From positions 1-64,000 of IMG/VR virus record IMGVR_UViG_3300042332_000818: 64,000 bases of DNA, one strand, 5' to 3'. A program made the position numbers and the translations under genes. Source of the DNA: a virus. Under the pieces are notes generated by a model. It worked only from the letters and a program-made list of their open reading frames with translations, made no database searches and was not told where the DNA came from. Below are positions 724 through 51,100 of this stretch, in pieces (position 1 is the stretch's first letter; every line of letters starts with the position of its first letter).

Positions 724-747
724 GAGATAAACCAAAACATTGACATA

Positions 748-3697: not shown

Positions 3698-3705
3698 TAA
3701 CAAAT

Positions 3706-3741
3706 AGGGTAGAGGGGGTAGCAATGCCCCCTTATACCTTT
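3706..3741 (+). terminator. Intrinsic terminator / hairpin after MCP
   Basis: GGGGGTA-GCAA-TGCCCCC stem-loop with extended AGGGT/ACCTT flanks and a short T run. Confidence 0.65.
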
Positions 3742-3769
3742 ACCTTGTCGTGCATCATTTATGATGCTT

Positions 3770-3834
3770 CACCTGTGCATGCCAGCAGATTTGTTTCTAG
3801 AACAAGTTTAGAGGTCGGCAGCCTCTCCAGGTAC
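3770..3834 (+). ncRNA. Degenerate tRNA-like cloverleaf with CUA anticodon
   Basis: Acceptor-like stem ACCTG/CAGGT; small D-like hairpin TGC-ATGCCA-GCA; anticodon arm TTTGT-TTCTAGA-ACAAG; 3-nt variable region; T-like arm AGAGG-TCGGCAG-CCTCT. No TTC motif and no CCA. Confidence 0.4.
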
Positions 3835-3885
3835 TAATTAGTGATAAACCCCAAAACCAATAATTATTAACCAACAAAAATCACT

Positions 3886-4902: not shown

Positions 4903-5012
4903 TGGCTGAAGATAAAGATCCATTTGCAGATTGGTTAGGGGAGCTTGAAAAAGCTCCTCAACCCACCTGTAATATTGACAATCCTGAAGATTGTGAAGCT
5001 TGCGGTAGTTAA
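4902..5012 (+). CDS. 36-aa acidic protein ending CNIDNPEDCEACGS (not in ORF track)
   Basis: ATG overlaps the upstream stop (TAATG). Translates MAEDKDPFADWLGELEKAPQPTCNIDNPEDCEACGS*. Confidence 0.7.
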   Translation: MAEDKDPFADWLGELEKAPQPTCNIDNPEDCEACGS

Positions 5013-5027
5013 TGAAGTGTTTAATCC

Positions 5028-5162
5028 ATGAATAAGAAAAAATTATCACCAGAAAAAGGTCCAAGAAAAATGAAGCTTTATGATGAAAGCTTGGATAAAA
5101 AGAAGTACGGTGGTGCATCAACTAACAAGTCTGTTAAAAAAGGCTTTAAAAGAATGAAGTAA
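5028..5162 (+). CDS. 44-aa basic protein with KKYGG motif (not in ORF track)
   Basis: MNKKKLSPEKGPRKMKLYDESLDKKKYGGASTNKSVKKGFKRMK*. Its stop overlaps the next ATG (TAATG). Confidence 0.6.
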   Translation: MNKKKLSPEKGPRKMKLYDESLDKKKYGGASTNKSVKKGFKRMK

Positions 5163-8097: not shown

Positions 8098-8118
8098 TCT
8101 TTAAAAAACCAAAAACCA

Positions 8119-8250
8119 ATGGCTCTTTGTCCCAACTGCAGATCTGTTCTCTCTTGTGGCTGTCAACAACGTACAGCTTCTAATGGTGCTTCTATTTGTC
8201 AGAATTGCCAAACTGAATACGAGAAACAGTTACAGCAACAAAAGAAATAA
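8119..8250 (+). CDS. 43-aa Cys-rich (zinc-ribbon-like) protein (not in ORF track)
   Basis: MALCPNCRSVLSCGCQQRTASNGASICQNCQTEYEKQLQQQKK*. Fills the intergenic gap and has an AAAACCAA leader. Confidence 0.7.
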   Translation: MALCPNCRSVLSCGCQQRTASNGASICQNCQTEYEKQLQQQKK

Positions 8251-25987: not shown

Positions 25988-26010
25988 ATAAAACATTAAA
26001 ACCAAATATC

Positions 26011-26271
26011 ATGTTAAAGAAATTCTGGAATTGGATCCTGGGTAAAACAACTATTGACGATAAGATTATTGAAGCCGTAAAGGTTGTTGAAGAACGTGTA
26101 GAAAGAGTAAAAGAAGAAACTGCAGATCTTGTTCAAGCTGTTAAAGAAGTGAAAGAACAAGCTGTAGATGTTGCAGAGGCTGCTTCTGGTGCTGCTCGTC
26201 GTGGTAGAAAACCAGCTGCTAAGAAACCCGCTGCAAAGACTGCTACTCCTAAAGCAAAAGTTTCAAAATAA
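26011..26271 (+). CDS. Small protein with amphipathic N-terminus and K/A/P-rich basic tail
   Basis: MLKKFWNWILG..., coiled coil, RRGRKPAAKKPAAK tail. Confidence 0.65.
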   Translation: MLKKFWNWILGKTTIDDKIIEAVKVVEERVERVKEETADLVQAVKEVKEQAVDVAEAASGAARRGRKPAAKKPAAKTATPKAKVSK

Positions 26272-26309
26272 TCACTATATTTGTCTAAGTTAACTAATCT
26301 TTTTACCAT

Positions 26310-26609
26310 ATGGCTAATCAACTAGAACAAACAGAACTTGAGAAAGTACAAGGTCTGGTAACCACTGTGCGTAACGCAGAGGGTGAATTCTTCCGTGCAT
26401 CTGTACAGAAGCAAGAAATGGAGCAAGTTTGCTCTGATCTTCTTCAGACAATGCGTGATGCAAATGCTAATCTTCAAGCTGCTATGAATGAGCTTAAAGA
26501 GAAGTACGGTGACATCGTAGTAAACCTGCAAGACGGTACTTACGAAGATGCTCCTGCTAAAGAAGAGGCAGCTGCACAGCCTGAGATGACAGTAGTACGT
26601 CCGGAATAA
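26310..26609 (+). CDS. Small coiled-coil protein
   Basis: 99 aa with L.EKYG...VNL.DG motif; preceded by a canonical Bacteroidetes -7 box TATATTTG at 26276-26283. Confidence 0.65.
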   Translation: MANQLEQTELEKVQGLVTTVRNAEGEFFRASVQKQEMEQVCSDLLQTMRDANANLQAAMNELKEKYGDIVVNLQDGTYEDAPAKEEAAAQPEMTVVRPE

Positions 26610-26632
26610 TACGGATTTACTTTAAATATGAA

Positions 26633-26661
26633 TAAGCCCCAGAGATGGGGCTTTTTCTTTT
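26633..26661 (+). terminator. Intrinsic terminator
   Basis: AAGCCCCA-GAGA-TGGGGCTT hairpin followed by TTTCTTTT. Confidence 0.85.
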
Positions 26662-26711
26662 GTCTGAAATTTAGTATATTATAATGTACACCACTATAAT
26701 CTTGTTTCAGA

Positions 26712-27281
26712 ATGGCAACTATCATCCTTACATGGACCCCCACTAATAATGCTACGAGCACCGGACAACAAGTTCAGAGAAAAGTTGCCGGAACTACGAC
26801 ATGGATAACTCTTGCTACAGTTGGACCAGCAATCGCTACTTATACAGATACTACTGCTGTAGATAATATTCTGTATGATTACAGAATTCTTAATGTCTGT
26901 TCCGTTGGTGGTCCAACAGGATCTGGTGTAGTACAACAAAATTCAATTGTTTGTCCGACTATTACTGTCACAAACCCGCAGACGGGTGCAGCAAATACCT
27001 TAGTTGTAAGTTATCCCACTCTTACAGGTGCAATTTCTTATGACTCTATTGAGCTGTTTGCATCTAATGGTACAACTAGTGTACAAGGACCTTTTGATAT
27101 TTCTGCATCAGGTCAGGGTGCTGGTACCTATACCTTTACTTCTCTTGCTTATACAACTTCTTATGTTGTAAAGATTGGTGTGACTGATGGTGTATTTACA
27201 AAATTCTGTCCTGTTAATGCTTCTGTTGGATCTGCTCCTGATTGTGGTGCTCCGTTGAACCTTGTAGCAACACTTGGATAA
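26712..27281 (+). CDS. Fibronectin type III-like virion protein
   Basis: ILTWTP...YTDTT...YDYRI plus a second FN3-like unit (YTFTSLAYTTSYVVKI). Confidence 0.7.
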   Translation: MATIILTWTPTNNATSTGQQVQRKVAGTTTWITLATVGPAIATYTDTTAVDNILYDYRILNVCSVGGPTGSGVVQQNSIVCPTITVTNPQTGAANTLVVSYPTLTGAISYDSIELFASNGTTSVQGPFDISASGQGAGTYTFTSLAYTTSYVVKIGVTDGVFTKFCPVNASVGSAPDCGAPLNLVATLG

Positions 27282-27287
27282 TAAGTT

Positions 27288-27599
27288 ATGGCAACTATAA
27301 ACCTTAGCTGGACACCTGCTACTGGTGCTAATATAATTGAGCAAAGAATTTACAGAGGTATTACCTCTGGTTCTTTGTCATTACTTGCATCTGGTTTGTT
27401 GCCCACTACAAATACTTATTCTGATACTACCGTATTGGATAATACTACGTACTATTATAGAATAGATTCTATTTGTACTATTGGAGGACCAACTCCTAGT
27501 AATGTTGCAACTGTTACAACTCCAGCTCCTTGTGCACCTGCTTCTGGAGTATCTGCAACAAGTTTGTTTACAGTTGACTTTAATTATACTCTAACATAA
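27288..27599 (+). CDS. Fibronectin type III-like virion protein
   Basis: INLSWTP...YSDTTV....TYYYRI...SNVATVTT. Confidence 0.75.
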   Translation: MATINLSWTPATGANIIEQRIYRGITSGSLSLLASGLLPTTNTYSDTTVLDNTTYYYRIDSICTIGGPTPSNVATVTTPAPCAPASGVSATSLFTVDFNYTLT

Positions 27600-27608
27600 T
27601 AAATTAAT

Positions 27609-28616
27609 ATGTCCATATCATCTAAAATAACTATTCAATGGACACCAAGTCCTAATGCTTTGACTCAATCAGTTGAAAGAGCGTTAGTTTCAACAGGACC
27701 TTGGACAACTTTAGTTTCAGGTTTAGGGCCAACAGTAAATTCATATGATGATACTACAGTTGTTGATAATCCGCCAACATTATATTATTATAGAGTATTA
27801 ACATATTGTGATGCCGAAAGTGCTCCAACGCCCAGTGCAATAAAATTTGCGTATAGTAATAATTGTGCAACACCTACTAACCCTTATCCAGATGAAACTG
27901 TTTTCGGGTTATGGAGTACAAATGCTGGGCTTATAACAAGTTTTAACTATTATGATCATTATGCTGATATACGCGGTTTAACTGCACTTAAAACTGTAAC
28001 ATCACCTGCTGGAAAGATTAGGGTAGTTTGTCATAAGTGTGGTCAAACGGTCCAACCTGTTGGTGTTTTTGCTCAATATGGTGATGTTTCTTATTTAAGT
28101 AACCAAGGTAATATTGCTCAATATTTACCAGCAAGTCCTTCTGGGCTTGGTGGTATACAGTATAATAATAGAGGTAATGTAACTAGAAAAATTAGATTTG
28201 GTAATTCAATAATAGATAATATTGCTGCACATTTTGGTAATGGTTCAGGTAATATATTTAACCAAGTCGTTCTTAGTTCTGGAACTTATACTCTTAAAAA
28301 TCATACTCAGCTTAGATTAGGAAAATATATTTTTGGTACTACTACTGATCAGACTGCAGATTTAAATGCACTAAACTCAACAAATCTTTATGTTGCAGTT
28401 TCAATGTCTGATTATAAGTGTCATATATATATCTATCAAGCACAAAGGAATAGTAATCTTGATATTACTGCAGGTGGGCAGACAATGCTTGGATTTAATT
28501 TAAGCTATGTTTCCTTTGTTATTAATAATAATTATGCTGTATATAGTATTATTGATTCTCAAATACTTAATTTTAATGATCAGCCTAATGCAAATTTTAA
28601 ATTCTTTAATCTCTGA
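27609..28616 (+). CDS. FN3-like domain fused to an unknown AT-rich-coded domain
   Basis: ITIQWTP...SYDDTTV...YYYRV N-terminus; the remainder is not recognised. Confidence 0.65.
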   Translation: MSISSKITIQWTPSPNALTQSVERALVSTGPWTTLVSGLGPTVNSYDDTTVVDNPPTLYYYRVLTYCDAESAPTPSAIKFAYSNNCATPTNPYPDETVFGLWSTNAGLITSFNYYDHYADIRGLTALKTVTSPAGKIRVVCHKCGQTVQPVGVFAQYGDVSYLSNQGNIAQYLPASPSGLGGIQYNNRGNVTRKIRFGNSIIDNIAAHFGNGSGNIFNQVVLSSGTYTLKNHTQLRLGKYIFGTTTDQTADLNALNSTNLYVAVSMSDYKCHIYIYQAQRNSNLDITAGGQTMLGFNLSYVSFVINNNYAVYSIIDSQILNFNDQPNANFKFFNL

Positions 28617-28624
28617 GACTAACA

Positions 28625-28660
28625 TTTGAAATACTGGAAAGTATTTCGTATATTTTATTG
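28625..28660 (+). promoter_or_regulatory. Bacteroidetes-like promoter
   Basis: TTTG (28625-28628), 20-nt spacer, TATATTTT. Confidence 0.55.
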
Positions 28661-28709
28661 TAGAGTATAATACTCTGCTGGAGCCACTCATAACTTATTT
28701 TCTTGTCAA

Positions 28710-29933
28710 ATGATTCCAGTATCGTCAAATACAATTACCAACGGCTGTAATCCGATCTCTTCAAACTGTGTGGTTTGGCAAGGTCCGGATATTCCCTGCA
28801 TAAATATTTGCACTGGGGATACTGTATCCGATGTGGTAGCTAAACTTGCCACTGAACTATGCACAGTTCTTGATCAGACAAGTCTTACTAATCTTGATCT
28901 GTCTTGCTTGAATCTTAATTCTCAAGACGTTCCTGCTGATTTTTCTGAATTGCAGCAACTCATTATTGATGAGATCTGCTCTTTAGGTGGTAGGTGTACT
29001 GCTCTTGAGGGTGGTGGTGGATCTGGAGGATCTTCATCTACTGTTACAGCAACTCTTCCGGTTTGCTTACAGTACACCAACCAGCAGAATGATTTGGTTA
29101 CCGTACTTCCTATTGACGATTACGCTGAACTTGTAGCAGCTAGAGTTTGTACACTTCTATCAAACATTACTACTATCAACTCAACGTTGGTTAGTCATAA
29201 TACTAGAATTACTGCTCTTGAGAATGCTACTTCTACTGGATCTACAATCCCTCAAGTAACACCTAACTGTGTTCTTCCTTCTGTACTTACCGACATTGAT
29301 GATGTTGTAGAAGCTTTGGAAGAGCAGTTTTGTAACTTGAGAACAGTAACAGGAACCTCAACTCAGCTTCTTGCTTCTACTACTTACCAGTGTCCCGGTC
29401 TAAACGTAGACAACAGATTGTCTGGATCTGGTACAATGTCTACTCTTGAAGGTTGGAACTCTAACCCTACTACTCTTTCACAGTCACTTACAAACATGTG
29501 GTTGACTATTTGTGATATTAGAGCCGCCGTTAAGACAATTCAAACTACTTGCTGCAATACTACTTGTGACGATATTCTCTTCACCTTTGCAGGAACTCTT
29601 AGCGTAAGCACTCTTACTCTAAACTTTAATGGAAGCTCTGCTCCTGTTGGATTTGATGAGTGTAATGTTAATGGTGCACTTGTAACTATTACAGATGGTA
29701 TGGGTGGTACTTACAGCACAAGAGTTCAAGTTCTTGATGCTCTTGCTGGTACTGGTACTGCACAGATTAACCTTGCTTCTTCTGGCTTGAACATTTACGT
29801 GGACTACACTGTAACAGTTACTTTCTGTGTAACAGATGGTAACATCACTTGTGATAAGTCTAAAACTATTACTGTAGAAAATCCTGCTAGTGCATGTGCT
29901 CTACCAACAGGTGTAACTGCAACAATATCTTAA
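28710..29933 (+). CDS. Cys-rich fibre-like structural protein
   Basis: 407 aa with SSNCV.WQGPDIPCI..C.GD N-terminus, coiled-coil segments (RITALE) and many Cys. Confidence 0.65.
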   Translation: MIPVSSNTITNGCNPISSNCVVWQGPDIPCINICTGDTVSDVVAKLATELCTVLDQTSLTNLDLSCLNLNSQDVPADFSELQQLIIDEICSLGGRCTALEGGGGSGGSSSTVTATLPVCLQYTNQQNDLVTVLPIDDYAELVAARVCTLLSNITTINSTLVSHNTRITALENATSTGSTIPQVTPNCVLPSVLTDIDDVVEALEEQFCNLRTVTGTSTQLLASTTYQCPGLNVDNRLSGSGTMSTLEGWNSNPTTLSQSLTNMWLTICDIRAAVKTIQTTCCNTTCDDILFTFAGTLSVSTLTLNFNGSSAPVGFDECNVNGALVTITDGMGGTYSTRVQVLDALAGTGTAQINLASSGLNIYVDYTVTVTFCVTDGNITCDKSKTITVENPASACALPTGVTATIS

Positions 29934-29936
29934 GAT

Positions 29937-30605
29937 ATGGCAACACTAAGTATAGCCTTTAATACCTCGGTAAATGCTGTAAAGTATAGAGTTAAGTATC
30001 GTGTAACCGGAACAAGCGCTTACACTACTGTTTATACTACAACATCTCCGGTAAACCTTACTGTAAACTGCGGTACTGCTTATGAAGGTACTGTAGAAGC
30101 AATTTGTGTTGAGGGTATTCCTTGCAATGGTTACGAGATTAATAATACTGGAGATGAAATTGGTACTCTAGAATATACTGATTGTGCTACTGGAAATACT
30201 TCTCATGTAGATATTAGTGAATACTCTACATTCTTTGTTTGTTCTAGAACAGAACCTGTTCCAACAGGAAGTGCGGCACCTCAAACAGGTGTTACTCAAG
30301 TTGCTTTAGATGCATGTATCTCTCCTGTTCAAGAAGAAGGAAGCGGGTTGGCTTATTGGACTGCTCCGGCATCAGCATGTGCTTACTACTACACTGTTAG
30401 TGTTTGTCCATCTAGTCTTAATAGTACTCTTCCTCCGAACAATGAAGTTAAGTCTAACACTTCTATTCCTATTGGAACTGTAGTTCAGCTTACTGGTGTT
30501 CCTTATGTAGATGGTTGCTACACTATTACCGCTGTTTCAGTATTGCAAACATCAGCTGTTAACGTAGCTCAGACTTTCTCTAACTGTAATGCTTGTATAG
30601 CTTAA
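29937..30605 (+). CDS. Cys-rich FN3-like protein
   Basis: YRVKYRV.G...Y...YEGTVEAIC and C-terminal F.NC.AC. Confidence 0.65.
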   Translation: MATLSIAFNTSVNAVKYRVKYRVTGTSAYTTVYTTTSPVNLTVNCGTAYEGTVEAICVEGIPCNGYEINNTGDEIGTLEYTDCATGNTSHVDISEYSTFFVCSRTEPVPTGSAAPQTGVTQVALDACISPVQEEGSGLAYWTAPASACAYYYTVSVCPSSLNSTLPPNNEVKSNTSIPIGTVVQLTGVPYVDGCYTITAVSVLQTSAVNVAQTFSNCNACIA

Positions 30606-30619
30606 TAAATTAAAAACTC

Positions 30620-31141
30620 ATGGCTTGTAAAGGATGTAATGATTGTAATGACCCAGCACTGAATTTGCCGGGTGCTTACAATGACTGTATTGGAGGAGAA
30701 CCTTGTGATGAGGTTCTTTCTATGGATTGCTCTAAGTATAAAGGCTTAGAGATTGTAGATATTCCGGTTAAAGCAGGTGAGCGTCTTAGCACTATTGTTA
30801 GACGCATGCTTCTTAATGAGCTTTATCCTACATGTGTTCAACCGACAAACCCTGTAATGTCAGTTATTGATGTTGCGGTTTTGACTATAAAGGATACAGA
30901 GATTGAATTTGAGTGGGTTAATCCTGGTAATACAGGTAACAAGTATACTCCTCAAATTAAGGTTGCCTCATCACCAACATGGACTCAACCTAATGGTGTT
31001 GATCTTACTGTAGTTAAGACTAAGTTTATCAACTTAGTTCCAAATACTGCATATCATTTTAGAGTTCTTAATGAAGATGTTTCAGGTGCTACTACTTGTA
31101 ATTCCTTGATTTTCAAGGTTACAACTCCTGCAACAGTATAA
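30620..31141 (+). CDS. Cys-rich protein with C-terminal FN3 domain
   Basis: MAC.GC..C N-terminus and FEW.NP...NLVPNTAYHFRV. Confidence 0.7.
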   Translation: MACKGCNDCNDPALNLPGAYNDCIGGEPCDEVLSMDCSKYKGLEIVDIPVKAGERLSTIVRRMLLNELYPTCVQPTNPVMSVIDVAVLTIKDTEIEFEWVNPGNTGNKYTPQIKVASSPTWTQPNGVDLTVVKTKFINLVPNTAYHFRVLNEDVSGATTCNSLIFKVTTPATV

Positions 31142-31146
31142 TATAT

Positions 31147-31180
31147 TGTCGCGCGGTTTGTTGGTTTTACGTTGCTGACA
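31147..31180 (+). ncRNA. Hairpin with a U/G-rich loop directly upstream of a terminator (candidate sRNA seed)
   Basis: Bulged stem TGTCGCGCG / CGTTGCTGACA around the loop GTTTGTTGGTTTTA. Confidence 0.35.
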
Positions 31181-31185
31181 TGAAG

Positions 31186-31214
31186 GAGAACCCCGGGGAA
31201 ACCTGGGGTTTTCT
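31186..31214 (+). terminator. Intrinsic terminator
   Basis: AGAACCCCGGG-GAAA-CCTGGGGTTTT hairpin with GNRA loop and T tract. Confidence 0.85.
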
Positions 31215-31281
31215 GTTATAACCCGTTGACGTTCAAGTAATATGTTTTTGTTTATATTTACAAAACCCAAATTAACTACCT

Positions 31282-32481
31282 ATGAGTTCACTTATTGATC
31301 TAGTACGACAGTCCCTCAAGTGGAAACAAAGTGCAAAGAATTGTGCTGAGAGAATCGGAATAGATGTTGAAGACTATCTGGTATTAAAGAATCAACTTAT
31401 GGAAGGATATGCTGACCCGTTTGTGGAAGGTATTATTTCAGTAAGAGAGAATCTTGACGCCAACACAAAGCAGCTAGAAGCAATTGCTACTACTGAACCA
31501 AAAACTCCAGAGGAGATTATCGCTTTACTGAATATTGATACCACCAAGTGGAAGCTCTCTCAGTATTGGAACAAACAAAAGAAAGATCACTGGATTGTTT
31601 CTGCTCTTGTTACAGCAATAAAGCAAACAGAACAAGATGTTCTTGCAGAGGTTTTGAAGAGCTTCTCACCTAAAAAAGTAGAAGTTCACATTGCAGACTT
31701 TCCAAATAATCCGGTTGCTACAAGTAACTACTGTGGAGTATTTAATGTACAGGATATTCACTTTGGTAAAGAAGGAAATGAGCTAGTTGTTTTAGATTTT
31801 AAGAATGCAGTTATTGACGTGACTACTCGTGTTGGTAAGATGCATATGCTTGATAAACTGATCTACGTCATTGGTGGTGATTTGCTTAACGCTGATACGT
31901 TTTCTGGTACAACGACTAGTGGTACACCGGTAGATAATGGTATGACCCCTGTAAAGGCATATAGTGAAGCTTTTGAGGCATTGTTCTGGGCAATCTATCA
32001 GCTGTCAACGATTACTAGTGATCTTGAGGTTGTCTATGTTCCGGGTAATCACGATAGACTAAGTTCTTATCATCTGGCACATGCTCTTTCTAAAGCTATT
32101 GATTTGCCTACTGTTACCTTTAATGTTGAGTATTCTGAAAGAAAAGTAATCACTTGGGGTAACAACTTCTTTGCTTTTGAGCATGGAGATGTAAATACTA
32201 AGGATGCCCCTATGGTTTATGCGTTTGAGTTTCCACAAGACTGGGGAGCTACAAAGTATAGAACACTGTACACAGGTCACTATCACATGAAGAAGACAAC
32301 CTCGTTTGTTTCAGAGAATGAGATTCATGGATTTGCTGTAAAGATCATGCCGAGTCTTTCTAGAACTGACTACTGGCACTACCATAATAAGTTTGTTGGT
32401 AGTAAGAGATCAGCAATCATGGACATTCACGAAAAGTACGATGGTAAAGCTGGAGAAATCTGCCACATTAGTAAAGATTAA
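31282..32481 (+). CDS. Calcineurin-like metallophosphoesterase
   Basis: All five motifs present: DIH, GGDL, GNHD, EHGD, GHYH. Confidence 0.85.
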   Translation: MSSLIDLVRQSLKWKQSAKNCAERIGIDVEDYLVLKNQLMEGYADPFVEGIISVRENLDANTKQLEAIATTEPKTPEEIIALLNIDTTKWKLSQYWNKQKKDHWIVSALVTAIKQTEQDVLAEVLKSFSPKKVEVHIADFPNNPVATSNYCGVFNVQDIHFGKEGNELVVLDFKNAVIDVTTRVGKMHMLDKLIYVIGGDLLNADTFSGTTTSGTPVDNGMTPVKAYSEAFEALFWAIYQLSTITSDLEVVYVPGNHDRLSSYHLAHALSKAIDLPTVTFNVEYSERKVITWGNNFFAFEHGDVNTKDAPMVYAFEFPQDWGATKYRTLYTGHYHMKKTTSFVSENEIHGFAVKIMPSLSRTDYWHYHNKFVGSKRSAIMDIHEKYDGKAGEICHISKD

Positions 32482-32483
32482 TG

Positions 32484-32518
32484 GTTGGTTCTTCCAGCTT
32501 TTTTATGTAAATTATAGT
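32484..32518 (+). promoter_or_regulatory. Bacteroidetes-like promoter
   Basis: GTTG, 20-nt spacer, TAAATTA. Confidence 0.45.
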
Positions 32519-32526
32519 GTACCTAT

Positions 32527-33108
32527 ATGAGGAAGTATAGAAAACCGGATTTAAAAGCACCACGTTATAGAAAGACAACACATAATATTTTAAATGCCAG
32601 CTTCTTAGAAGACTTTAAAACAAAATACCCACGGTATTCTGAAATAGACAATAAGAAACTTAAGAATATTATTGAGACTTATAACGGTGTTCTTTGGCAG
32701 ATGGTTATTGATGAGAGGGAAGGTGTTGAACTTCCTGAAGGTTTAGGGTTTTTGTTCATTGGAACAGCCACTTCAAAAAGTGAAAACCCTGATCCGACCA
32801 AATCAGCAGAAATGGGAGTAGCAGTTACTCACATGAACTGGGCCACCAATAACAGAATCTGTAAGATCTTCTACACCAACTATCCTTCCAAGTATAGGTT
32901 TGCTAATAGAGAGGTATGGACTTTTGGTGCTGTAAGGCAATTTAAACGTTCAGTTTCTAAAGCATATGTGGATAACTGGGAAAGATATATCGTCATTGAT
33001 AATCTCCGCAAGATTTCACACTTGTATAGGAAAATGAACCATAAGTTTTATGACGAAAAGAAATTACCCGAACTATTAGAGATGTACGATGAGTTTCAGA
33101 TAGATTAA
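32527..33108 (+). CDS. IHF/HU-like protein of the crAss tail module
   Basis: Basic 193-aa protein with GVELP.GLG.L.I and F...R.FKR motifs; syntenic with ring and muzzle genes. Confidence 0.55.
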   Translation: MRKYRKPDLKAPRYRKTTHNILNASFLEDFKTKYPRYSEIDNKKLKNIIETYNGVLWQMVIDEREGVELPEGLGFLFIGTATSKSENPDPTKSAEMGVAVTHMNWATNNRICKIFYTNYPSKYRFANREVWTFGAVRQFKRSVSKAYVDNWERYIVIDNLRKISHLYRKMNHKFYDEKKLPELLEMYDEFQID

Positions 33109-33118
33109 ACCAAGTCTT

Positions 33119-33790
33119 ATGACTACAATTAAGGAAGTTGTTTCTAGAGTTAGAAACCTGATGAAGGGATCCAAACAGGATCCTTTTCTGACTGATAGAT
33201 ATATCTACAGTCTTATTTTGAAATACGCTGCTGTATACATGCGTCGTCAGGACTCTACAAACAAACTGATGAAATTCAACAGTGTGTTTCAGACTCTGCC
33301 ATTTGTAGAGCTAATTGAAGTAGATAAGGTAGAAGCTCACTGCTCTGGTGTAAAGAGTGGTATCACAATTAAACGTACTAAGGAGAGGCTTCCTAGTTTT
33401 ATGCAGGGTTACTGGGGTCCCATTATTAGAACCGTAAGTTCTATTGATGGCTCTATTGAATTGCAACCTACTATGCCGGGAACTTTTACGTCTATGACTA
33501 AAACAAGTTCTTTCAAGTACAATACAACTAAGTACTACTGGTTTCTTAATGGTTACCTGTACATGCCCAATATTGATTGGGATGCTATTTTGATTGAGGG
33601 TGTATTTGAAGGAGATATCACTAAGTGGAATTGTGACCCTAAAGATGATTGTGATCCAAGACATCATCAACCTCTTAATGTTCCGGATTTTCTGTTTGCT
33701 GAGATTGAAGCAATGGTGCTGAAGGATCTTGCAGCTCAAGCAAGTGTTCCTGCCGATATGAGTGATGACAAATTAAACGTTCTTAGATAA
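33119..33790 (+). CDS. Tail ring / tubular protein
   Basis: 223 aa with YYWFLNGYLY and EGVFE motifs; upstream of the muzzle gene. Confidence 0.6.
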   Translation: MTTIKEVVSRVRNLMKGSKQDPFLTDRYIYSLILKYAAVYMRRQDSTNKLMKFNSVFQTLPFVELIEVDKVEAHCSGVKSGITIKRTKERLPSFMQGYWGPIIRTVSSIDGSIELQPTMPGTFTSMTKTSSFKYNTTKYYWFLNGYLYMPNIDWDAILIEGVFEGDITKWNCDPKDDCDPRHHQPLNVPDFLFAEIEAMVLKDLAAQASVPADMSDDKLNVLR

Positions 33791-34659
33791 TGGCACAGTA
33801 CACAGTTAAATACCGTTCGTTTGATCAACTGCTTGAGGATGTGACAGTTGACTTTAGCTCATATGCTCTTGAGGGTATGATTGAGCCTCAGCAACTTATT
33901 AAGGTTGCTTTGAGAGTTAACTATGACCTTGGTCTCAGAATTCATCAGCAGAAAGAAGTTGTTATTGATGTTGAGCATGGTAAGGCAAAACTGCCATCAG
34001 ATTTCTACACTTTGAACTTTGCTTTGCTTGCTGGTAATATGACTTGGCAGGAGCCTGTTCTTTCTGGTACACACATTGAAGATGTTGTTCTTGACCGTGG
34101 ACTTGTAGAGCTTGATGCTAATGACTGTCCGGTTGATACATCTGTTTGCCAATCTGATTGTGGTAACTACTACCAGCTTATTCAGAAGTTTAAAACAAAG
34201 ACCGTTACCTATGAGTCTTTGCAGACTATTAGAATTAAACCTTCAAGTGCTGTAAGTGGTGATTGTCCTAATACACGTTGGAGTTCTTCATATCAAGCAG
34301 ACATCCGTGGAGGATTCATCTATACTAGTTTCCAAACCGGTAAGCTTTATGTAAACTACCAAGGAGCTCTTGAAGATGAGAATGGTGAGCTTCAGGTTAT
34401 GGATCACCCTATGATTAATGAATACTATGAATATGCAATTAAGCAGCGTATTCTTGAGAACATGTACATTAATGGTGAAGATGTAGTTCAGAAGCTTACG
34501 CTTGTAGAACAACGTCTTAGAGGTGCTAGAAACAACGCTTTGTCTATTGTTAATACTCCGGACTTTGCAGAGATGAAGAAGCTTTGGGAAGTTAACCGTA
34601 AAGCGCAATACCACAAGTATGTAGATATGTTTAAGTCTTACCCGACTGTACAGTACTAA
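33790..34659 (+). CDS. Tail ring / tubular protein
   Basis: 289 aa with A.LP.DF, I.TSF.TG...V.Y...DE.G...V.D motifs; directly before the muzzle gene. Confidence 0.65.
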   Translation: MAQYTVKYRSFDQLLEDVTVDFSSYALEGMIEPQQLIKVALRVNYDLGLRIHQQKEVVIDVEHGKAKLPSDFYTLNFALLAGNMTWQEPVLSGTHIEDVVLDRGLVELDANDCPVDTSVCQSDCGNYYQLIQKFKTKTVTYESLQTIRIKPSSAVSGDCPNTRWSSSYQADIRGGFIYTSFQTGKLYVNYQGALEDENGELQVMDHPMINEYYEYAIKQRILENMYINGEDVVQKLTLVEQRLRGARNNALSIVNTPDFAEMKKLWEVNRKAQYHKYVDMFKSYPTVQY

Positions 34660-34670
34660 AGAAATAAGAA

Positions 34671-37600
34671 ATGGCTAAACAGAATCAAGAAGGAACGTCA
34701 CCCATTGCCTTTAACAAGGGGATGGTAAAAGATAATGCTGATCTGTTTCACCCTGATGGTTCTTGGTCACATGCACGTAATGCTGTGAACTCTTCATTTC
34801 AGGGTGACGTAGGTGTATTATCTAATGAACCTTCTAACAAGTTCTGTGCACAAGCCCCATATACGGTTATCGGTACAATCCACATCACTGATGATGAGTG
34901 GGTAATATTTTCTACAGATAATAACAATAGTGAGATTGGCTACTTTAAAGAAGCCACTTGCACTTACACTAAAATTGTCAATGCCCCGTGCTTAGCATTT
35001 GATAAGAATCATCTTATTACAGGAGCCTCTAGAGAGAACTTTGACTGCAGTAGGCAGATCTATTGGGATGATGGAAAAAACCCATCACGTACACTAAATA
35101 TTAATAACCCTCCGTACATAACTACAAGAACTGTAGTTAATGACTGTGTGGTAAATACCCCAACAGATGAACTCAATTGTGAAGCCCTACGTTTGGCTCC
35201 TCTCTTTAAAGTACCATGTATTTCAATGGGAAGAGGAGACAATGCTGGCACTTTATATAATGGCTCATATCAAGCAGCAATCGCCTACTCAATCAACGGA
35301 CAACGAGTAACAGATTACATTGCTCTTTCTAATGTTGTATCATTGTTTGATCACGATAATGCAAATGGTTCTCTTGAAATTAAGATTACCGGTTTAGAGA
35401 CAGAAGCTTTTGAAGAGTATGAACTTGTAATTATTAGTAATACTAAGACCTTACAAGCTGATGCTAAGATTTTGGGTTACTACAGTACTAATCAGAATAT
35501 TATTAGTATTGACAATGTTGCAATCTCTCTTGTAACAGTTGAGCTATCTAGAATTCCTATTCTTAATTCTGTATATGAGAAGTCTGATGCAATGTTTCCA
35601 ACTGGAGACTACCTTATCAGAACAGGAGTATACGAGCGTTTTAATTTTAACTACCAGCCACAAGCAAACAAGATTAAGAGCAGATGGGTTGCTGTAGAGT
35701 ATCCAGCAGATTACTATCTAAATGGTAGTAATCGTGGTTACATGCGCGATGAGCAGTATGCTTTCTTTATTCGTTGGGTTTATAACACAGGTGAAAGATC
35801 ACTTGCATACCATATTCCTGGAAGAGCGGCATTATCCTCTGATTTAGAGAATGTTGTTGGTAATGACGTAATTTATTCTAATAAGAGTAAGCGTTGGCAG
35901 AACTACAATACTGCTACAATTACTTCTGCACAGACAGAATTACTTTCTGATGGAGGTAAGATTATTGGAAGAGGTGAAATGGGTTACTGGGAATCTACAG
36001 AAAGATATCCTGATAACAAGCCGGAACGTTGGGCTGAATTGTGTGGTAAACCTATTAGACACCACAAGTTTCCGGATGATGGATTGATTCCTAGACATAA
36101 TGTTGATGGAACTAAGATTGTAGTTCTTGGCGTTGACTTTACCAATATTACCGTTCCTGTAGATAATGACGGTAACCGAATTGATTCTATTGTAGGTTAT
36201 GAGATTCTTAGAGGATCAAGACTTGGTAATAAAACTATTCTTGCTAAGGGTCTTATTAACAACATGGGTACTTACCAGTTGCCTGGTGAGAGAGAAGCAG
36301 ATGATCAAACTATCCTCTTTACAAACTATCCGTTTAATGACCTAAGAAAGGATCCCTTTCTTTCTACCAACTTTGTAAAGGGTGGAACTGCACTTAATAA
36401 TCTACAGGTTGCAGAGCTAGATACCTATAAGGATAATAAAAGATACTTTTCTTTTCACTCACCTGAGTTTGGTTTTAACAAGACTTTTTTATCTGCTACC
36501 GAGCTTAAGGTTTATGGTGAAGCATACGGTAAAACAAAAGGTAAGTTTATTGAACCCAGTGAACATCCCAAGCATGTAATTATTAGAAACCTTACAGCTT
36601 TGGTTTCTTTGCTTTTGGGTCTTGGTAAGTTGGATAAACACTTAAGAGGTCAAAGAACATTTACATTACCAAATGTTCCAAGTATAATAAGAGGTGGACT
36701 TCTTCCTCCCTCTGCAGGAACTCTTGATAGATGGGCTACCACACTTGGCACTTTGCTTGATCCTTCAGGTGCTGCTCAATGGGCATCACTTGGTTTTTTA
36801 ACACAAGATATTGAAAGTTCTGATCTTAATGATTTACCCCAACCTTTAAGAGCTGCGGCAGCTATTCCTGCCATTATTAGGGGACTGACCGAGGGTACAA
36901 ATGACTACCTTGATAAGTTTTATGATTTTCTTCAGTACAGACAGCATGCCTTACAACATGTTGCTTATGGATTTTATAATCAGTTTAAGAAAGCACCGGT
37001 AGGTAATACTCGTAGATTGATTTCAGAATCTGCTTATGTGTATCCTCAACTTCAACAGTTTGAAAACAGAATCTCTGTAAATAATCTTTATAGAAGTAGA
37101 ACTGTAGTATTTAAAACTGGTAGTGATCTACAGCATCCTACTATTGTAGATGATTCTCGTTATACTGTAGGTCAGTCTCGTTCTTGGAAGAATCCGTTTG
37201 ATGAAAAGGTTCGTAATATTTCTTCGCACTATGGTGCAATGAAGATTGATTACGAGAATCAATATGGTCAGATTGATAGTACTATTATTCTTCCAACTGG
37301 TTGCAGATTTGTAATTCCTGGATTTGTACAAAATGGACAGAAGTTTACTTCTCCATTAGTATTTGGTGGTGATATCTACATCAATCGTTATACAGAGAAG
37401 AATACAATGTTCTTCTTTAATAACTGGATGACAGATCAGCCAGATGGAACTGTATTTGACTATACAAAATACATTAACGTTCCGTTCCCAACATATTGGA
37501 TGAATACAGAAAGATGGGAGCTTGAAGAGTTCTTCACTGGAATTGGTGACAATATATCTAACTGGGTTTCAGGATTGTTTAGCAGTAGCATTGCACAACA

Positions 37601-45386: not shown

Positions 45387-48182
45387 ATGGCATCATATAT
45401 AGACAATATTGCACAGAACTCTCAGATTGCGGCAGTACTTCCGTACACGCCGGATTGGGATTTTTTGTCCAGTAGCCAAAAGACTTTAGCGCAAATGCAG
45501 ACTAATGCGTTTGAAAGCTTTTACGATAAGTATTCAACGCTTTTGAAATCTGATTTGTTAAACTCAGAGAATCAGCAGTTTAGAGATAAGTTTATGACAG
45601 AAGCTGACAACAAACTTAAAATTGTTGGCAGCACTGATCTTACTGATCCAAGAAGTCTTAGTAATGCTAATTCAATTTTTGATAGTTTGGTAAACAATCC
45701 TAGATATGTAAAGGATATTATGTTTACTAAAGCAGTTAAAAAGGATTTAGATTATGCAGACAATCTTAGATCTTCATTAGATGAAAATGTAAGATCTCTC
45801 TATAACCCCTACTCTGTACAGGATATAATGTTTAGCGTAGAGGACTTTAAAAATGCTAAGGGTGATGCAATTTTAGGTATCGGCAATCCTCGTTATGTAC
45901 AGAATATAGATCTTTGGTCTCAAGCTGAAAAGTATTTTGAGGATAAAGATTGGAAAAGAACATATGATCAAAGATCTGGAGGATATATTTATACCAGTAA
46001 GAACGGTAAGCTTATAGAGGATGATGTTTATCAGTACCTCTACAATAGATTTTCTGAGGACCCTCTTGTTAAAGACTACCTTAATGTGCAGTCTAGAGTT
46101 GAAAGAAGAAGCTTTATAGAAAACAATCTTGATGCTTTTGGTGGAGATAAGACTAGAGCAGAGATGGCTTATCTTAAAACAAAGTGGAATACTATTTCTG
46201 AACCAATCAGAAAGCAGGTTGTCAAGTATGATGAAGAACTAGCAAAACTTGAATATGGTAATGCTGAAGTTCAAAGAGCTAGACAAAATCAACCCGCAAC
46301 GGGTAATCTTCGTAGACAAAGCGATCAACAGAGTGTTGTAGAATTGTTTAATGAGCTAATGACAAAGAAGGAATCAATGCCTTCTTTGGATCCTGCCATT
46401 AGTGAAGCTCTATCTAGTAACGATTTCTCTAACATTGCTGGTATTATATCAAAAATTGATGATATCAGTTTCAAAGCTAGCATTACTAAAATTGCCGAAG
46501 TATTTTCTAGAAGAGGAGAAGAGCAAAGTATGAAAGCTGATGAGTATGCATTAGCTCAGCACAGAGCAGGTCTTGATGATTGGAAAAATCAGCAACAGGT
46601 TGCAAGACAATTTGATGCTGATTTCCGAATGGCACAGCTTAAAGGTGAGATAGTAATTCCTGGTATGGGTGTATCTCAAACCGGTACTCCAATCTCTTCC
46701 GGTACAGATCCTGTAATGAGTGATAAAAATCCTGAAGATTATCCTAATTATAATTATAAGGAACTTGCTGAGAGAACTACCGATGCTCGTAATGCTGGCT
46801 ATGAGGCAATTAAACAATGGTCTCAACTTACAGGAACACCCGTTAGAAATTCTGCTGGTAAAGTTATTCCTCTTGATGGATTAGATAAACTAACAGAAAA
46901 AGAGTTTCAGTCTTATATATCCAAGGCTGAAGTTGTAAGCAAAAGAGGTACAAGAGATATTGAAGATTCTGATGGTGCAATTAATTTGCGTCAGAAAATT
47001 AGAATTTACAATGAAAAAACTGGTATTGAAAAGGGTCTTCTTAAAATAGAGCAAGAAAATTTGCTAAAGTCAATAGACAAGGCTTCTAATTCTGTTATTA
47101 ATGATGAAGAAGGTAAGCAAGCTTTTGCTTTAATGCGTGAGATTGTAAAGTCAGGAATTGTTAACCCTCAAACTATAAAAGAGAAGTTTGAAGAAAAGTG
47201 GGATGCTGAAAGAGATGCTAAAATAGCTGCTGCCCCACTTATTGGGCCTTGGTTAAGCAGTCCTAAATTCGGAGTATGGGCTGTTACTGAGAGTGGTAGC
47301 GATGCTTGGAATACTTGGTTTGGTGGTACATCTATACTAGATCCAGGTACTTGGGCAGGAAAAGAATATGAAGTTTCTACCTACTATTCTAAAGAGGCAA
47401 AGAGTTTAGCATCTGCTGTGCAAGGTCGTGATACAAGAGTAGGTGGAGAAGAAAGAAAGGGTACCAACTTTGGTATGGCTTCTTCAAAAGGTTCTGCGGT
47501 TAATATTGTTGTTAATCAAGCTAGTCAATCTTTATCTCAAAATCTTGGCTCTGTTGGTTTTGGTACATTGGAGAGTGCTATTGATGGCAGTCTTCCAAAT
47601 CAAGATGCTGCTGAAACAGCTTTTAATACTATTGTTAATGTTTTAAATACAAAAACAACAGGTAACACAAATCCGAGAAACATGCAGGTTGAAGGATTTC
47701 AAGATAATGATGGTAATCAGTTTATTAGAATTATTCCTGATTCTAAAACTGCTGATGAGTTAATGGGGTCCAAAGAAAACCCCGGGCCTTTAAAAGATAG
47801 AGTTACTTCAGATCTGCTTGCTCAAGGTGTTGTTGTTAAACTAGCTCCGGCTGGTGCGCTACCTAAAAGCACTTTTGATTTTAGAACTACTCCAATTGAA
47901 GCGGCTATTAATGTTAACGGTGGAGAGTTAACTATAGGCGGAGGTTATTATGATGGAGGAAAAGTTACTATTACTAGAAATGGTAATGGTTCTTATCAAT
48001 ACTATGGAGAGAAGTATATTTACGATCCAAATGAAGGTGGTTATAGAGAAGTTAATATTTCTAAAGAGATAAATAAATATATTAACGAAAATAATTTTTC
48101 TATTCAACAAGCTAAAGACTGGATAGATACATACTTAAACGCAAATGCTGCAAAAAATATAACATTGGAAAAACAAGACTAA
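45387..48182 (+). CDS. Large cargo / ejection protein
   Basis: 931 aa, helical, N-terminal PY.PD..F motif; directly upstream of the virion RNAP. Confidence 0.6.
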   Translation: MASYIDNIAQNSQIAAVLPYTPDWDFLSSSQKTLAQMQTNAFESFYDKYSTLLKSDLLNSENQQFRDKFMTEADNKLKIVGSTDLTDPRSLSNANSIFDSLVNNPRYVKDIMFTKAVKKDLDYADNLRSSLDENVRSLYNPYSVQDIMFSVEDFKNAKGDAILGIGNPRYVQNIDLWSQAEKYFEDKDWKRTYDQRSGGYIYTSKNGKLIEDDVYQYLYNRFSEDPLVKDYLNVQSRVERRSFIENNLDAFGGDKTRAEMAYLKTKWNTISEPIRKQVVKYDEELAKLEYGNAEVQRARQNQPATGNLRRQSDQQSVVELFNELMTKKESMPSLDPAISEALSSNDFSNIAGIISKIDDISFKASITKIAEVFSRRGEEQSMKADEYALAQHRAGLDDWKNQQQVARQFDADFRMAQLKGEIVIPGMGVSQTGTPISSGTDPVMSDKNPEDYPNYNYKELAERTTDARNAGYEAIKQWSQLTGTPVRNSAGKVIPLDGLDKLTEKEFQSYISKAEVVSKRGTRDIEDSDGAINLRQKIRIYNEKTGIEKGLLKIEQENLLKSIDKASNSVINDEEGKQAFALMREIVKSGIVNPQTIKEKFEEKWDAERDAKIAAAPLIGPWLSSPKFGVWAVTESGSDAWNTWFGGTSILDPGTWAGKEYEVSTYYSKEAKSLASAVQGRDTRVGGEERKGTNFGMASSKGSAVNIVVNQASQSLSQNLGSVGFGTLESAIDGSLPNQDAAETAFNTIVNVLNTKTTGNTNPRNMQVEGFQDNDGNQFIRIIPDSKTADELMGSKENPGPLKDRVTSDLLAQGVVVKLAPAGALPKSTFDFRTTPIEAAINVNGGELTIGGGYYDGGKVTITRNGNGSYQYYGEKYIYDPNEGGYREVNISKEINKYINENNFSIQQAKDWIDTYLNANAAKNITLEKQD

Positions 48183-51100
48183 TGGACTTTAATGCAAATC
48201 CCCTGTTTCCAAATACTTCAAATCCAAAAGTTTCAGGAATTAGCCCTGAACTTTTAGCTGATTTTAATAGTGCTTTAGCACAAGCAGCACCTGAGTTTAG
48301 ACCTGAGCCAAATCCGTTGTTTACAAGGTTTCCAAATGAAAACTTTGGATTGTATGAAACGAACTATGAGCGCTATGCTCGTCGTTCAAACTTTGATGAA
48401 TTAGGCTTCTCTCCTTATAGAGACAATGATGCAATCTATAATGCTGAAGCAAACTTTGCAGGAGAGCTTTGGAGAGGTCTTCAGGGTGCTGCAATGTTAA
48501 CCGGCAGCACTGCTTTTGATATGCTGAAAGGTACTGGAGATATTTTAACTCTTGACTTTAAAGGGTTAATGGCTCCAGATATGGGTGCTGCGGCTGAATT
48601 TGAAGATATTAATAGAATCTATGGTTCTACAAAAGGTGGTGCTACAGGATTTATTGCTAATGGTGCAACTCAGCTAGGTTTTATTGGTGGAATGGTTTTG
48701 GGTTCGTTGCCTGAAAGTGCAGCACTTGCCTTTGCTACTGCTGAAGCCGGTGGTGCTGCAGGATTTTTAAACATTGGTCGTAAAATTGGTCAGGGTTTAA
48801 GAATTATTGATAAAGCTGCTGATGCTACTGCTGCAGCAAAAGCAGCACAAGCTGCTAGCGCAACAAGCACTGTACTAAAGAATGCTGAAACGGTTAGAGG
48901 TGCTGGTGCTGTAGCTGATTGGTTGGCTACTACTTCACCACAAATTGCAAAGATTACAGGTAATCCTATTCTGAAGTTTTTTAATCCTTTAGAAAATACT
49001 GTAGGATATATTGATGATGTAGCTAAAGCTGCAAGTGCTGGCACGGCACTACCGTCTATTGGTAAGGGTGTTGGTGCTGTAATGCGTGATGGTCAAATTT
49101 TTAAAGCTGCCGCAGTAGAAGCTAGTCTTGAAGGAGGTTTTGTTGCAAAGAATCTTAGTGATAAAGCTCTAAATGAGTTTTATGAAACTAACGGAAGACT
49201 TCCAAATGAAGAAGAATTAGCTGAGATTAAAGAAAAAGTAACTGAAGCTGGAGCAAGAACAACCGCTTGGAACTTGCCTGTAATTCTTTTTACAGATAAG
49301 CTTCTTTTTGGACCTATGCTTAATAAGCTAGATAAAACAATTTCTAGAGGTATTGGTGCTGACTTACAAGGTCTTGTCAGAAATGCTGATGGTACAGTTG
49401 CAGCGAAACAAGTATTGGGTGCCAGTGCTAGAAAAAGTGTAACACTTGAAGGTAAAGAGTTTTTAAATTCTTTACTTCAGCCTGGAAAATACTTGACTAG
49501 AGGTAGTGCATTCTTAAAGAACGGACTTGGTGAAGGTGCTCAAGAAGTGTTTCAAGAGTATGCTTCTAAAACAATGGAAGATTACTATGGTGATATTCTA
49601 TCTAGTCCTATGGGTATTCCCAAAATGGATGTGATGGGATACCTTAAAGAGAACATTAGTAACACTGGAGCCGATGAAGGGCTAGCGTTTTTGTCAGGAG
49701 CTTTTGTTGGTGGTGTTGCCGGAGGTGCAATGAGTAAAGTTGCAAAAGCAGCTAAGATTAATGCAGGTATCAATACTTTTATAAACCAGACAAATGAATC
49801 TGGAGAGAAGATGTCTTTTAAAGAAAGATATCAGGCATATAAAGCTGAGCAGCAAAAAATAAATAATGAGCTTGCTGATACTATTAATTCTGCAATTCAA
49901 TCACCGGTTGATCTTTTTGAACGCTCTATTAGAACCAATGAGGATACTAAAAAGCTTCTACGTCAAATTCAAATTGGAAACCTTATCCAGGACGAGAAGC
50001 TTGTAAGAGATGCTGCAGAAGAGTTAAGATTTAATAAGATCTACACTGCTCTTGATACGGGAACATTTGATTTGCTTACAGGTAAACTTGCTACTCTTAA
50101 GCAGCTTGATGATGTTGGTATTGTAGAAGCAACCGGATCTGCTAATGCAGAAGAAGCTAGAGCTAGACTTGATAAGACTATACAGAGAGCAAACGAAATT
50201 AAAAACAGATACGATAGCGTTAAGTCTAAGTATCCTAATCCGTTTGATTACTCAATGTATGAATATGCAACTGATGCATACAACCAAGCATACTTGGCAA
50301 ACAAAGGTTATGAGGAAGCGCTTAGAGATTACATCTTTATGGGTGAGACCATTGACAAACTTAAAGAAAGAAATGCTTCTTTAAAGTCTGCATTTGGTTC
50401 TACTTCTATTGCTCCTAAGATTACAAGTCTTGATGTAGATGTAATTACAAACTTGAGCAATCTACGTAAAGAGATGTCTTTACTTTCTGATGAAGTGCTC
50501 GCGGAAGATGCAGCTGTCACACCAGATCAAAAGAAAATTATTGCTAATAAGAAAGCTAGACTAAAAGTTCTCACTGAATACAATGATGCTCTAAATGCTT
50601 TTCATGCTGCCGAGAAAGAAGGTAAGGGTACTAAGCGTAAAGAAGCTAAATTAAAGTCATCTTTTGCTAAAGTAGTTAGTCATCTTAATGAAGTATCTGA
50701 AGTAGAGTCACAATACTCTGAGGATTCTTTTAATGAGCTATTTGCACAGCTTAAAGACTACCAAAGAAACGATATTGATAGTCTTCAACTTGGTGCACGT
50801 GCAGCTACGTTGGGTAACTACAGCACACTTATAGACTATGCTAAAAGGCATAGTGCTGCAATGAATGATGTTTTTGTAAACAAAAGAAAATACATCAAGA
50901 GATCTGTAGATAACTTTATGTCTGCTGTTGCACAGAATCAAAACCTTCACAGTCTAAAAGAAGCGGGCTATGCTATTCCGGAGGAAGAGCTTATGCCATA
51001 CATTGAAGAAGGTAAGATTCCACAAAATCTTATTTCTTTAAAGAATGGTACAACTGTACCAACAACAGATCCTTCTATTGAAGGGGTTCTTGAAACAATA

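Follow-up and report, generated by a model that had tools for sequence, protein, structure and literature searches.

The described systems closest to the element treated here, a hairpin followed by a terminator at 31147-31217 (plus strand) of the virus record IMGVR_UViG_3300042332_000818, are found among bacterial small RNAs (sRNAs) and phage hairpins. The sRNAs of the CpxQ, SroC and DapZ type derive from 3' untranslated regions (3'-UTRs) and share the terminator of their mRNA; in enterobacteria they need Hfq and RNase E. RNAIII and RsaE/RoxS of Gram-positive bacteria carry C-rich loops that pair with Shine-Dalgarno sequences. The boxB hairpin of the lambda nut site has a short stem and a loop of 5 nucleotides (nt) and acts through a protein, in N antitermination, and the hairpin promoters of N4-type virion RNA polymerases have a 5-7 bp stem and a 3-nt loop and lie in several copies upstream of early genes. 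In Bacteroides thetaiotaomicron, GibS represses its targets by pairing at initiation regions, with neither Shine-Dalgarno sequences nor Hfq, according to the sections of the source available to us (PMC7366714).

The window, meaning the whole stretch of 64,000 nt that was analysed, comprises bases 1-64000 of a 119,389-bp record with a completeness rating of 100%, and its long open reading frames (ORFs) all lie on the plus strand. Gene 2060-3697 matches a major head protein family and is taken as the major capsid gene. Two further matches are as follows.

31282-32481, plus strand: metallophosphatase of the Mre11/SbcD type ('DNA repair exonuclease'; phrog_704, E 1.9e-44), syntenic with g075 of Cellulophaga phage phi14:2
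33119-33790, plus strand: CrAss_Ring_2, tail ring protein 2 (Pfam, E 7e-18)

By these three matches, the window belongs to a crAss-like phage (Crassvirales). The stretch is contained in 18 DNA runs, labelled as lake water, freshwater and wastewater metagenomes. Just one of the 39 window genes is preceded by a Shine-Dalgarno-like tetramer (GGAG, GAGG or AGGA at -20 to -4), and the leaders of relatives (756 distinct 30-nt sequences) are 45% A and 10% G. Both observations fit the Shine-Dalgarno-free initiation described for Bacteroidetes (PMC7366714). Evidently, Shine-Dalgarno sequences play no part in the host, as the sequence-only reading that preceded this analysis had supposed; the phylum of the host is presumed.

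The module at 31147-31217 may encode a regulatory RNA of the phage, one that would act by pairing of its loop with the initiation regions of two capsid-module genes, probably in repression; we judge the chances of this reading to be about even. The first of its two hairpins would keep an invariant loop, UUUGUUGGUUU, single-stranded, and the second would be an intrinsic terminator forming the RNA 3' end. The RNA would be made as the 3' end of a structural-gene transcript or, in some lineages, from a late-type promoter of its own. Its loop would pair with AAACCAAC(A)AA motifs located 2-8 nt before the start codons of the genes on either side of the major capsid gene, a scaffold-like one that precedes it and a conserved one that follows, with a few lineage-specific leaders as additional candidates. 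Since the host does without Shine-Dalgarno sequences and the ribosome has to cover the positions in which the motif lies, pairing should block initiation. We infer that such an RNA would accumulate, pair in trans and lower the output of both proteins relative to the capsid protein.

Such an RNA would resemble the CpxQ, SroC and DapZ type in starting a few nt after a stop codon, ending at the operon terminator and carrying a conserved seed just upstream of that terminator, but one subfamily here appears to have its own promoter. As in RNAIII and RsaE/RoxS, a short conserved loop motif would pair with the ribosome-binding stretch of several mRNAs, whereas the proposed seed is U/G-rich, the putative target is AACCAA instead of a Shine-Dalgarno sequence and the source is a phage. 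GibS and other trans-acting sRNAs of B. thetaiotaomicron likewise combine a conserved single-stranded seed with initiation-region targets that lack Shine-Dalgarno sequences, act without Hfq/ProQ and, in the sections available, have repression as their outcome (PMC7366714). GibS counts in favour of pairing, as it sets a precedent within the phylum to which the host presumably belongs. It differs in being encoded by the host and in its seed, which is long (30-50 nt), unstructured and at the 5' end (PMC7366714), whereas the RNA proposed here is phage-encoded and has a putative 8-12-nt seed in a hairpin loop and candidate targets among phage capsid-module genes.

The hairpin and its terminator

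The gene upstream of the module, 30620-31141, has its stop codon at 31139-31141, and the first hairpin begins 6 nt after position 31141. The parts of the module are listed below.

31147-31180, plus strand: hairpin 1, candidate seed-presenting stem-loop, with a 9-pair stem (31147-31155/31170-31180), two bulges and a 14-nt loop
31157-31167, plus strand: loop core TTTGTTGGTTT, the proposed seed, with TTGGT at 31161-31165 invariant among relatives
31185-31217, plus strand: intrinsic-terminator-like hairpin 2, with a 13-bp stem and a GAAA loop (hairpin 31185-31214) and a T-rich tail

The loop of hairpin 1 (31156-31169) reads GTTTGTTGGTTTTA, or GUUUGUUGGUUUUA in its short form. The GC-rich stem, T-run and covarying stem of an intrinsic terminator are found in hairpin 2 alone; it does not appear in the list of a simple terminator scan, probably because its longest stem takes up part of the T-run. 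The hairpin-borne core TTTGTTGGTTT occurs once in the 119,389-bp genome. A second exact copy, at 113631 on the minus strand, was rejected, as it lies within a coding region and forms no hairpin. No family of Rfam release 15 reaches its gathering score in the window: all weak matches fall far under their thresholds, the best over 31100-31300 scoring 19.6 bits against a threshold of 54.

Conservation and covariation among relatives

Relatives were collected with the metallophosphatase as query, giving 102 related IMG/VR stretches, of which 80 loci at 95% to 42% protein identity were kept. The element lies upstream of the metallophosphatase gene in all 80: a motif search finds a TTGGT-containing element at most 400 nt upstream in 79, and a covariance model finds the last one (locus L006) about 540 nt upstream. 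In L006 the module occupies 2381-2466, and its distance from the metallophosphatase gene, compared with the usual 100-150 nt or so, indicates that something is inserted between the two. The gene on the other side varies: 30620-31141 is the best match for 27 distinct ORF starts, versus 68 for the downstream gene.

Removal of identical copies leaves 66 distinct sequences, window included (alignment A1). In these, T20, T23, T24, G25, G26 and T27 (TTGGT and one further T) are invariant and T19, T21, G22, T28 and T29 are kept in at least 90%, so that the same holds for TTTGTTGGTTT. The arms that flank this core differ completely among subfamilies and form 26 sequence classes, with pairs such as GTCAGTGG/CCACCTGAC, GGAGG/CCTCC, AGAGGG/CCCTCT, GTAGAG/CTCTAC and GTTACG/CGTAAC. 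In constrained folds, a hairpin encloses the core in 65 of the 66 sequences, mostly with a loop of 10-19 nt. Native arms pair at -9.51 kcal/mol, compared with -5.63 for 3504 swaps between dissimilar arms. For the structure as a whole, 81.7% of the cells of a model-based alignment pair, versus 65.7% in shuffles (none of 500 reaches the native value) and at most 53.6% when the partners are slid. In helix 3 of the model, the terminator, pairing reaches 91.4%, and both sides change in 11 of 12 pairs. A covariance-type model with a single geometry suits hairpin 1 poorly (65.5% of cells paired), as the subfamilies are too diverse in geometry for it. RNAalifold on a MAFFT alignment recovers the terminator alone, since stems of unlike length are misaligned, and for this reason the constrained folds, the arm-swap test and the covariance model were used.

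The window's genome and each of five near-complete relatives (5/5) hold one strong copy. Three secondary model matches in relatives were inspected and set aside: the TTGGTT loop is missing from all three, and clear terminators are present in two. Judged by comparative sequence analysis, the hairpin is a conserved, single-copy structured element, and the search for conservation and covariation that the sequence-only reading had proposed shows, for the hairpin, an invariant loop on stems with compensatory changes. As a separate observation, the apical sequence GTTTCTAC or GTATCTAC is common to many terminators of the phage group (L001-L080, L174, L175), including ones away from the hairpin.

A start-codon motif complementary to the loop

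The two genes whose leaders carry a conserved complement of the loop flank the major capsid gene.

748-2013, plus strand: gene before the major capsid protein, scaffold-like by AlphaFold model and position
729-735, plus strand: AAACCAA, conserved candidate target site in the leader of 748-2013, 12 nt before the ATG
3886-4902, plus strand: gene after the major capsid protein, conserved uncharacterised Crassvirales protein by Foldseek comparison with BFVD
3853-3878, plus strand: tandem AAAACCAA (3853) and AACCAACAAA (3869), conserved tandem candidate target in the leader of 3886-4902; predicted duplex with the window loop -12.5 kcal/mol

The product of 748-2013 has no Pfam, PHROG or PDB sequence match. 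Its AlphaFold model (mean predicted local distance difference test, pLDDT, 64.5) consists almost wholly of helices, long ones that come after some 110 disordered residues at the N-terminus, and this model and the place of the gene directly before the capsid gene suggest a scaffold-like protein. The model of the 3886-4902 product (mean pLDDT 80.6) has Foldseek/BFVD matches to uncharacterised crAss-like proteins, including a 294-residue phi14:2 protein (E 1.7e-08), and no match among PDB folds at E <= 0.001. The 259-nt stretch that follows this gene (about 4902-5161) holds short ORFs: one, from an ATG overlapping the stop codon, reads (M)AEDKDPFADWLGELEKAPQPTCNIDNPEDCEACGS, and a lysine-rich short ORF comes after it.

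On the plus strand of the window, AACCAACAAA occurs once, at 3869; AAAACCAA occurs at 760 (inside gene 748-2013), 3853, 8105, 8112 and 25998, and AAACCAA in 13 copies, including those at 729 and 33107. AACCAA itself has 37 plus-strand and 33 minus-strand copies. Seven of the 37 fall in the 1673 nt of intergenic DNA, where 0.54 are expected, and none of 5000 shuffles reaches seven. Two of them, at 8107 and 8114, immediately precede the start of an unlisted ORF, so that every one of the seven has a start codon nearby.

For a wider view of leaders, the major capsid protein was used as query; it retrieved more than 589 relatives, of which 80 loci at 79-98% identity were kept. AACCAA was counted per gene family in distinct 45-nt leaders.

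Homologs of 748-2013: 62/68
Homologs of 3886-4902: 44/48, with two or more copies in 32
Homologs of 2060-3697 (major capsid protein): 0/67
Homologs of 31282-32481: 7/68
Homologs of 32527-33108: 1/47
Homologs of 33119-33790: 2/63
Homologs of 33790-34659: 0/63

The motif is thus specific to particular genes, and the sequence-only reading, which had spoken of many structural genes, was too broad: the deeply conserved candidate targets are the homologs of 748-2013 and 3886-4902. The last copy mostly lies 2-8 nt from the ATG, and its distance from a promoter-like TATATT box, by eye, ranges from about 7 to about 25 nt; AACCAA therefore tracks the start codon and not the promoter. TTGGTT is found in none of 311 leaders of the capsid loci, which makes the motif strand-specific. 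Permutations of the same composition are 3 to 50 times rarer (AACACA, for example, at 0.96 per kb versus 12.78 per kb). The T-arm-like strings GGTTCGATCC seen by eye in some leaders were considered as signs of tRNA genes and dropped, ARAGORN finding no tRNA in 10 of 10 loci or in the window.

Leaders of the capsid gene itself (L089-L168, 60 nt upstream) have another motif in common, TTAACCCTTAAAT with its variants, and AACCAA is absent from all of them; in the window, TTAACCAAAT precedes the major capsid gene and TTAACCTAAAT precedes gene 6302.

Predicted pairing between loop and leaders

When all hexamers are ranked over the 756 leaders, AACCAA comes first, in 137 leaders versus 16.3 expected, followed by ACCAAC, AAACCA, CCAACA and AAAACC. 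Overlapped, these five hexamers give AAAACCAACA, which is the reverse complement of UGUUGGUUUU in the loop. The predicted duplex of the consensus loop with the leaders of the 748 and 3886 families has -9.6 and -9.7 kcal/mol (77% and 73% of leaders at -8 or below), compared with -3.2 to -6.6 for 12 other leader groups and -5.9 for shuffled loops on the leaders of the two families.

The outgroup lacks both partners. Phage phi14:2 belongs to another Crassvirales family, Steigviridae by its GenBank taxonomy line, and has the same gene order: g092, capsid gene g091, g090, then g076 and the metallophosphatase g075 (calcineurin-like phosphoesterase). Its g076-g075 spacer holds neither hairpin nor terminator, its whole record has no TTGTTGGTT (best covariance model match, 20.1 bits), and the leaders of g092 and g090 have no AACCAA; hairpin and leader motif are thus absent together. 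Among cultured phages, blastn of 29900-33200 against GenBank phages gives no match, and tblastn gives only distant matches for the metallophosphatase (below 32% identity) and none for the 3886-4902 protein.

Pairing, if real, could also activate: the RNA might open an inhibitory leader fold or aid ribosome loading on leaders without Shine-Dalgarno sequences, which we regard as improbable. The spacer 3698-3885 is strongly structured (-53.5 kcal/mol, z -3.05) and contains a terminator-like hairpin. In it, both AACCAA sites lie between the arms of a 7-bp stem, UAGUGAU/AUCACUA, which also takes in positions -6 to +1 of gene 3886, and AACCAA has the spacing from the ATG that a ribosome-binding element would have; both points would suit activation. 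Against it, the stem is seen by eye in the closest relatives only (L089, L090) and in none of the other leaders compared, and for the 748 homologs no conserved inhibitory structure is seen. Repression is the more likely outcome. A related and still less probable idea is that AACCAA is a phage-specific ribosome-loading signal and the UUGGUU loop a trans-acting adaptor, or a decoy, for a ribosomal or phage component that reads it; if true, this would give the phage a private translation-initiation channel for its capsid-module genes.

How the RNA may be made

The layout is that of a 3'-UTR-derived sRNA, in the window and in relatives alike: the hairpin follows a stop codon, by 5-25 nt in most relatives, and uses the intrinsic terminator of the operon. 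This distance favours a 3'-UTR origin. A late-type promoter-like motif, GTATATTATTAaTGTAgA, precedes the 748-2013 homologs (TATATT in 62 of 69 distinct leaders, L089-L168). In one subfamily, comprising 4 of the 66 distinct elements, a full copy of this motif lies some 25 nt ahead of the hairpin and scores above the 99th percentile of a position-weight scan, an arrangement that would suit an sRNA expressed on its own. The window has a possible counterpart.

31137-31149, plus strand: TATAAT/TATATT boxes, uncertain as a promoter of the module; GTATAATATATTGT resembles GTATATTATTAaTGTAgA by eye

The GTATAATATATTGT region appears in one listing as a sigma-70-like site with 9 of 12 positions matching, and it stays below the 99th percentile in the position-weight scan. 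The promoter-like motif of the 748-2013 leader lies at 706-730 of the window and is also seen after other terminators in relatives L175 and L176.

Evidence against pairing and alternative explanations

Several results weigh against a pairing RNA or speak neither for nor against it. Hairpin 1 by itself (-7.1 kcal/mol, z +0.19) is matched by 103 of 200 shuffles, and the z of -3.41 for the whole hairpin and terminator region is owed to the terminator only; the reality of hairpin 1 therefore rests on the comparison with relatives. In the window's own genome, 41 of 134 initiation regions form a duplex at -9 kcal/mol or below, versus 29.9 +/- 8.3 with shuffled loops (shuffle fractions 0.08, of 200, and 0.04), a narrow excess, as a loop rich in U and G forms loose pairs with whatever leader is A-rich. 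The comparison with shuffled controls that the sequence-only reading had called for favours pairing for the leaders of the two families and is weak in the single genome. The leaders counted above are distinct sequences, yet they are related by descent. Two RNA runs, with small shares, yield 12 short contigs on 26000-36000, none over 30676-31677, and contigs cannot show RNA ends. The G.U strand test for hairpin 1 finds the plus strand better in 29 cases and worse in 36.

The fold and duplex results would suit an ordinary double terminator next to A-rich leaders. This is hardly credible, being contradicted by the comparative data: the 11-nt loop is kept down to 42% protein identity while the stems turn over, and the permutations of AACCAA are far rarer in the same leaders.

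The G.U result, and the single copy per genome, would be compatible with an element that acts as DNA, either as a single-strand hairpin for replication or packaging or as a promoter of the virion RNA polymerase. Compared with the N4-type promoter, the loop is longer (10-19 nt), the copy is single and a same-strand terminator follows. That terminator follows in every case and is recognisable as plus-strand RNA by its G.U pairs and T-run; there is no leftward gene that starts out from the element, and the strand-specific motif at start codons would be left unexplained. Virion polymerases of crAss-like phages do transcribe denatured DNA, but the available part of the same source finds no motif shared upstream by the early transcripts of phi14:2 and mentions no such hairpin (10.1101/2020.03.07.982082). 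A role as DNA is very improbable. In the window, a 4492-codon ORF at 48182-61660 occupies the place where crAss-like phages have the virion RNA polymerase (phi14:2 g066 by synteny).

Whether loop and leader change together has a mixed answer. In two lineages whose loop has A for G before UUGGUU, the matching U follows AACCAA in 3 of 7 sites, versus 14% overall, and one leader site is a perfect 13-nt complement, AAAACCAAUAAAA. In a lineage with C before UUGGUU, the matching G is present in none of 3 sites. Leaders of a UUGGUA lineage hold AACCAA and not UACCAA, without compensation, but each of their 3 sites keeps an 8-nt complement, ACCAACAA; for this loop variant, three longer contigs took the place of contigs L077 and L080, which have no homolog of 748 or 3886. 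The C that would pair with the loop's G is present in only about half of the sites. The joint change is suggestive and strict covariation is not established; the test has little power, because the loop hardly varies.

This incomplete covariation would also suit a protein-binding site. A phage or host factor might bind the hairpin on the transcript and control terminator read-through (into the metallophosphatase and virion-polymerase genes), RNA processing or stability, with AACCAA an unrelated translational enhancer; we consider this unlikely, though the strongest of the rivals. Protein operators, too, typically show a loop that stays constant while the stem varies. The element shares with lambda boxB the character of a small conserved phage-transcript hairpin near a terminator at a module border, but its loops, at 10-19 nt, are not the 5-nt loop of boxB and a complementary motif exists next to start codons. 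It always stands directly before the terminator, beside the homolog of a gene, phi14:2 g075, for which the available part of 10.1101/2020.03.07.982082 gives a middle promoter. On the other side, the complementarity of the loop to the top leader hexamer would have to be coincidence, with some six loop hexamers out of 4096 and a match over 10 nt, no alternative antiterminator pairing is seen between hairpin 1 and the terminator, and there is no candidate binding protein.

Other complementary sites

Besides the two conserved leaders, the window has sites of shallower depth.

8105-8119, plus strand: tandem AAAACCAA x2, lineage-level site directly before ATG 8119 of an unlisted ORF; predicted duplex -13.7 kcal/mol
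25998-26005, plus strand: AAAACCAA, lineage-level site 5 nt before the ATG of 26011
33107-33113, plus strand: AAACCAA before ATG 33119, not conserved (2/63 homolog leaders)
2040-2045, plus strand: AACCAA before the major capsid gene, not conserved (0/67 leaders) and probably not a target

The sequence-only reading had placed its motifs, hairpin, loop, stop codon and terminator accurately and had put the sites within about 35 nt of start codons. For 8105/8112, this fails with respect to the listed gene at 8253, which is 139-146 nt away, yet holds for the unlisted ATG 8119; one copy is kept in the two 97%-identical relatives where this can be checked. The unlisted ORF (8119-8250, 43 codons, MALCPNCRSVLSCGCQQRTASNGASICQNCQTEYEKQLQQQKK) is Cys-rich, with paired cysteines like those of a small zinc-ribbon protein, and is kept in the 97%-identical L177 and L178. 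The 25998 site is kept at 74-83% identity and gone at 65% or below (2 of 4 distinct leaders). The targets proposed by the sequence-only reading at 2040 and 33107 do not hold up among relatives; before the major capsid gene, a 98%-identical relative already reads AACTTAA.

Outside the window, further leaders of the same genome are candidate complements of the loop (72572, 111873, 100195 on the minus strand, 66445). Among such sequences are ACCAACAAtcAAAACCAACA before an 87-residue ORF (-15.6 kcal/mol), ACCAACAAACC before a 91-residue ORF (-17.6 kcal/mol) and AAAACCAACC before a 96-residue ORF on the minus strand.

Significance

Post-transcriptional control in phages of hosts that do not use Shine-Dalgarno sequences is largely unexplored, and among the publications listed on crAss-like phages and Crassvirales no description of a regulatory RNA was found. 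The element is a compact, single-copy marker of an environmental phage group. With a defined 11-nt seed, dozens of natural variants and two conserved candidate targets, one on each side of the major capsid gene, the case makes it possible to test how such a phage balances its scaffold-like and accessory proteins against the capsid protein. If the loop does pair with these leaders, the RNA would be a regulator of a known kind, in a phage order and a host setting without a known example.

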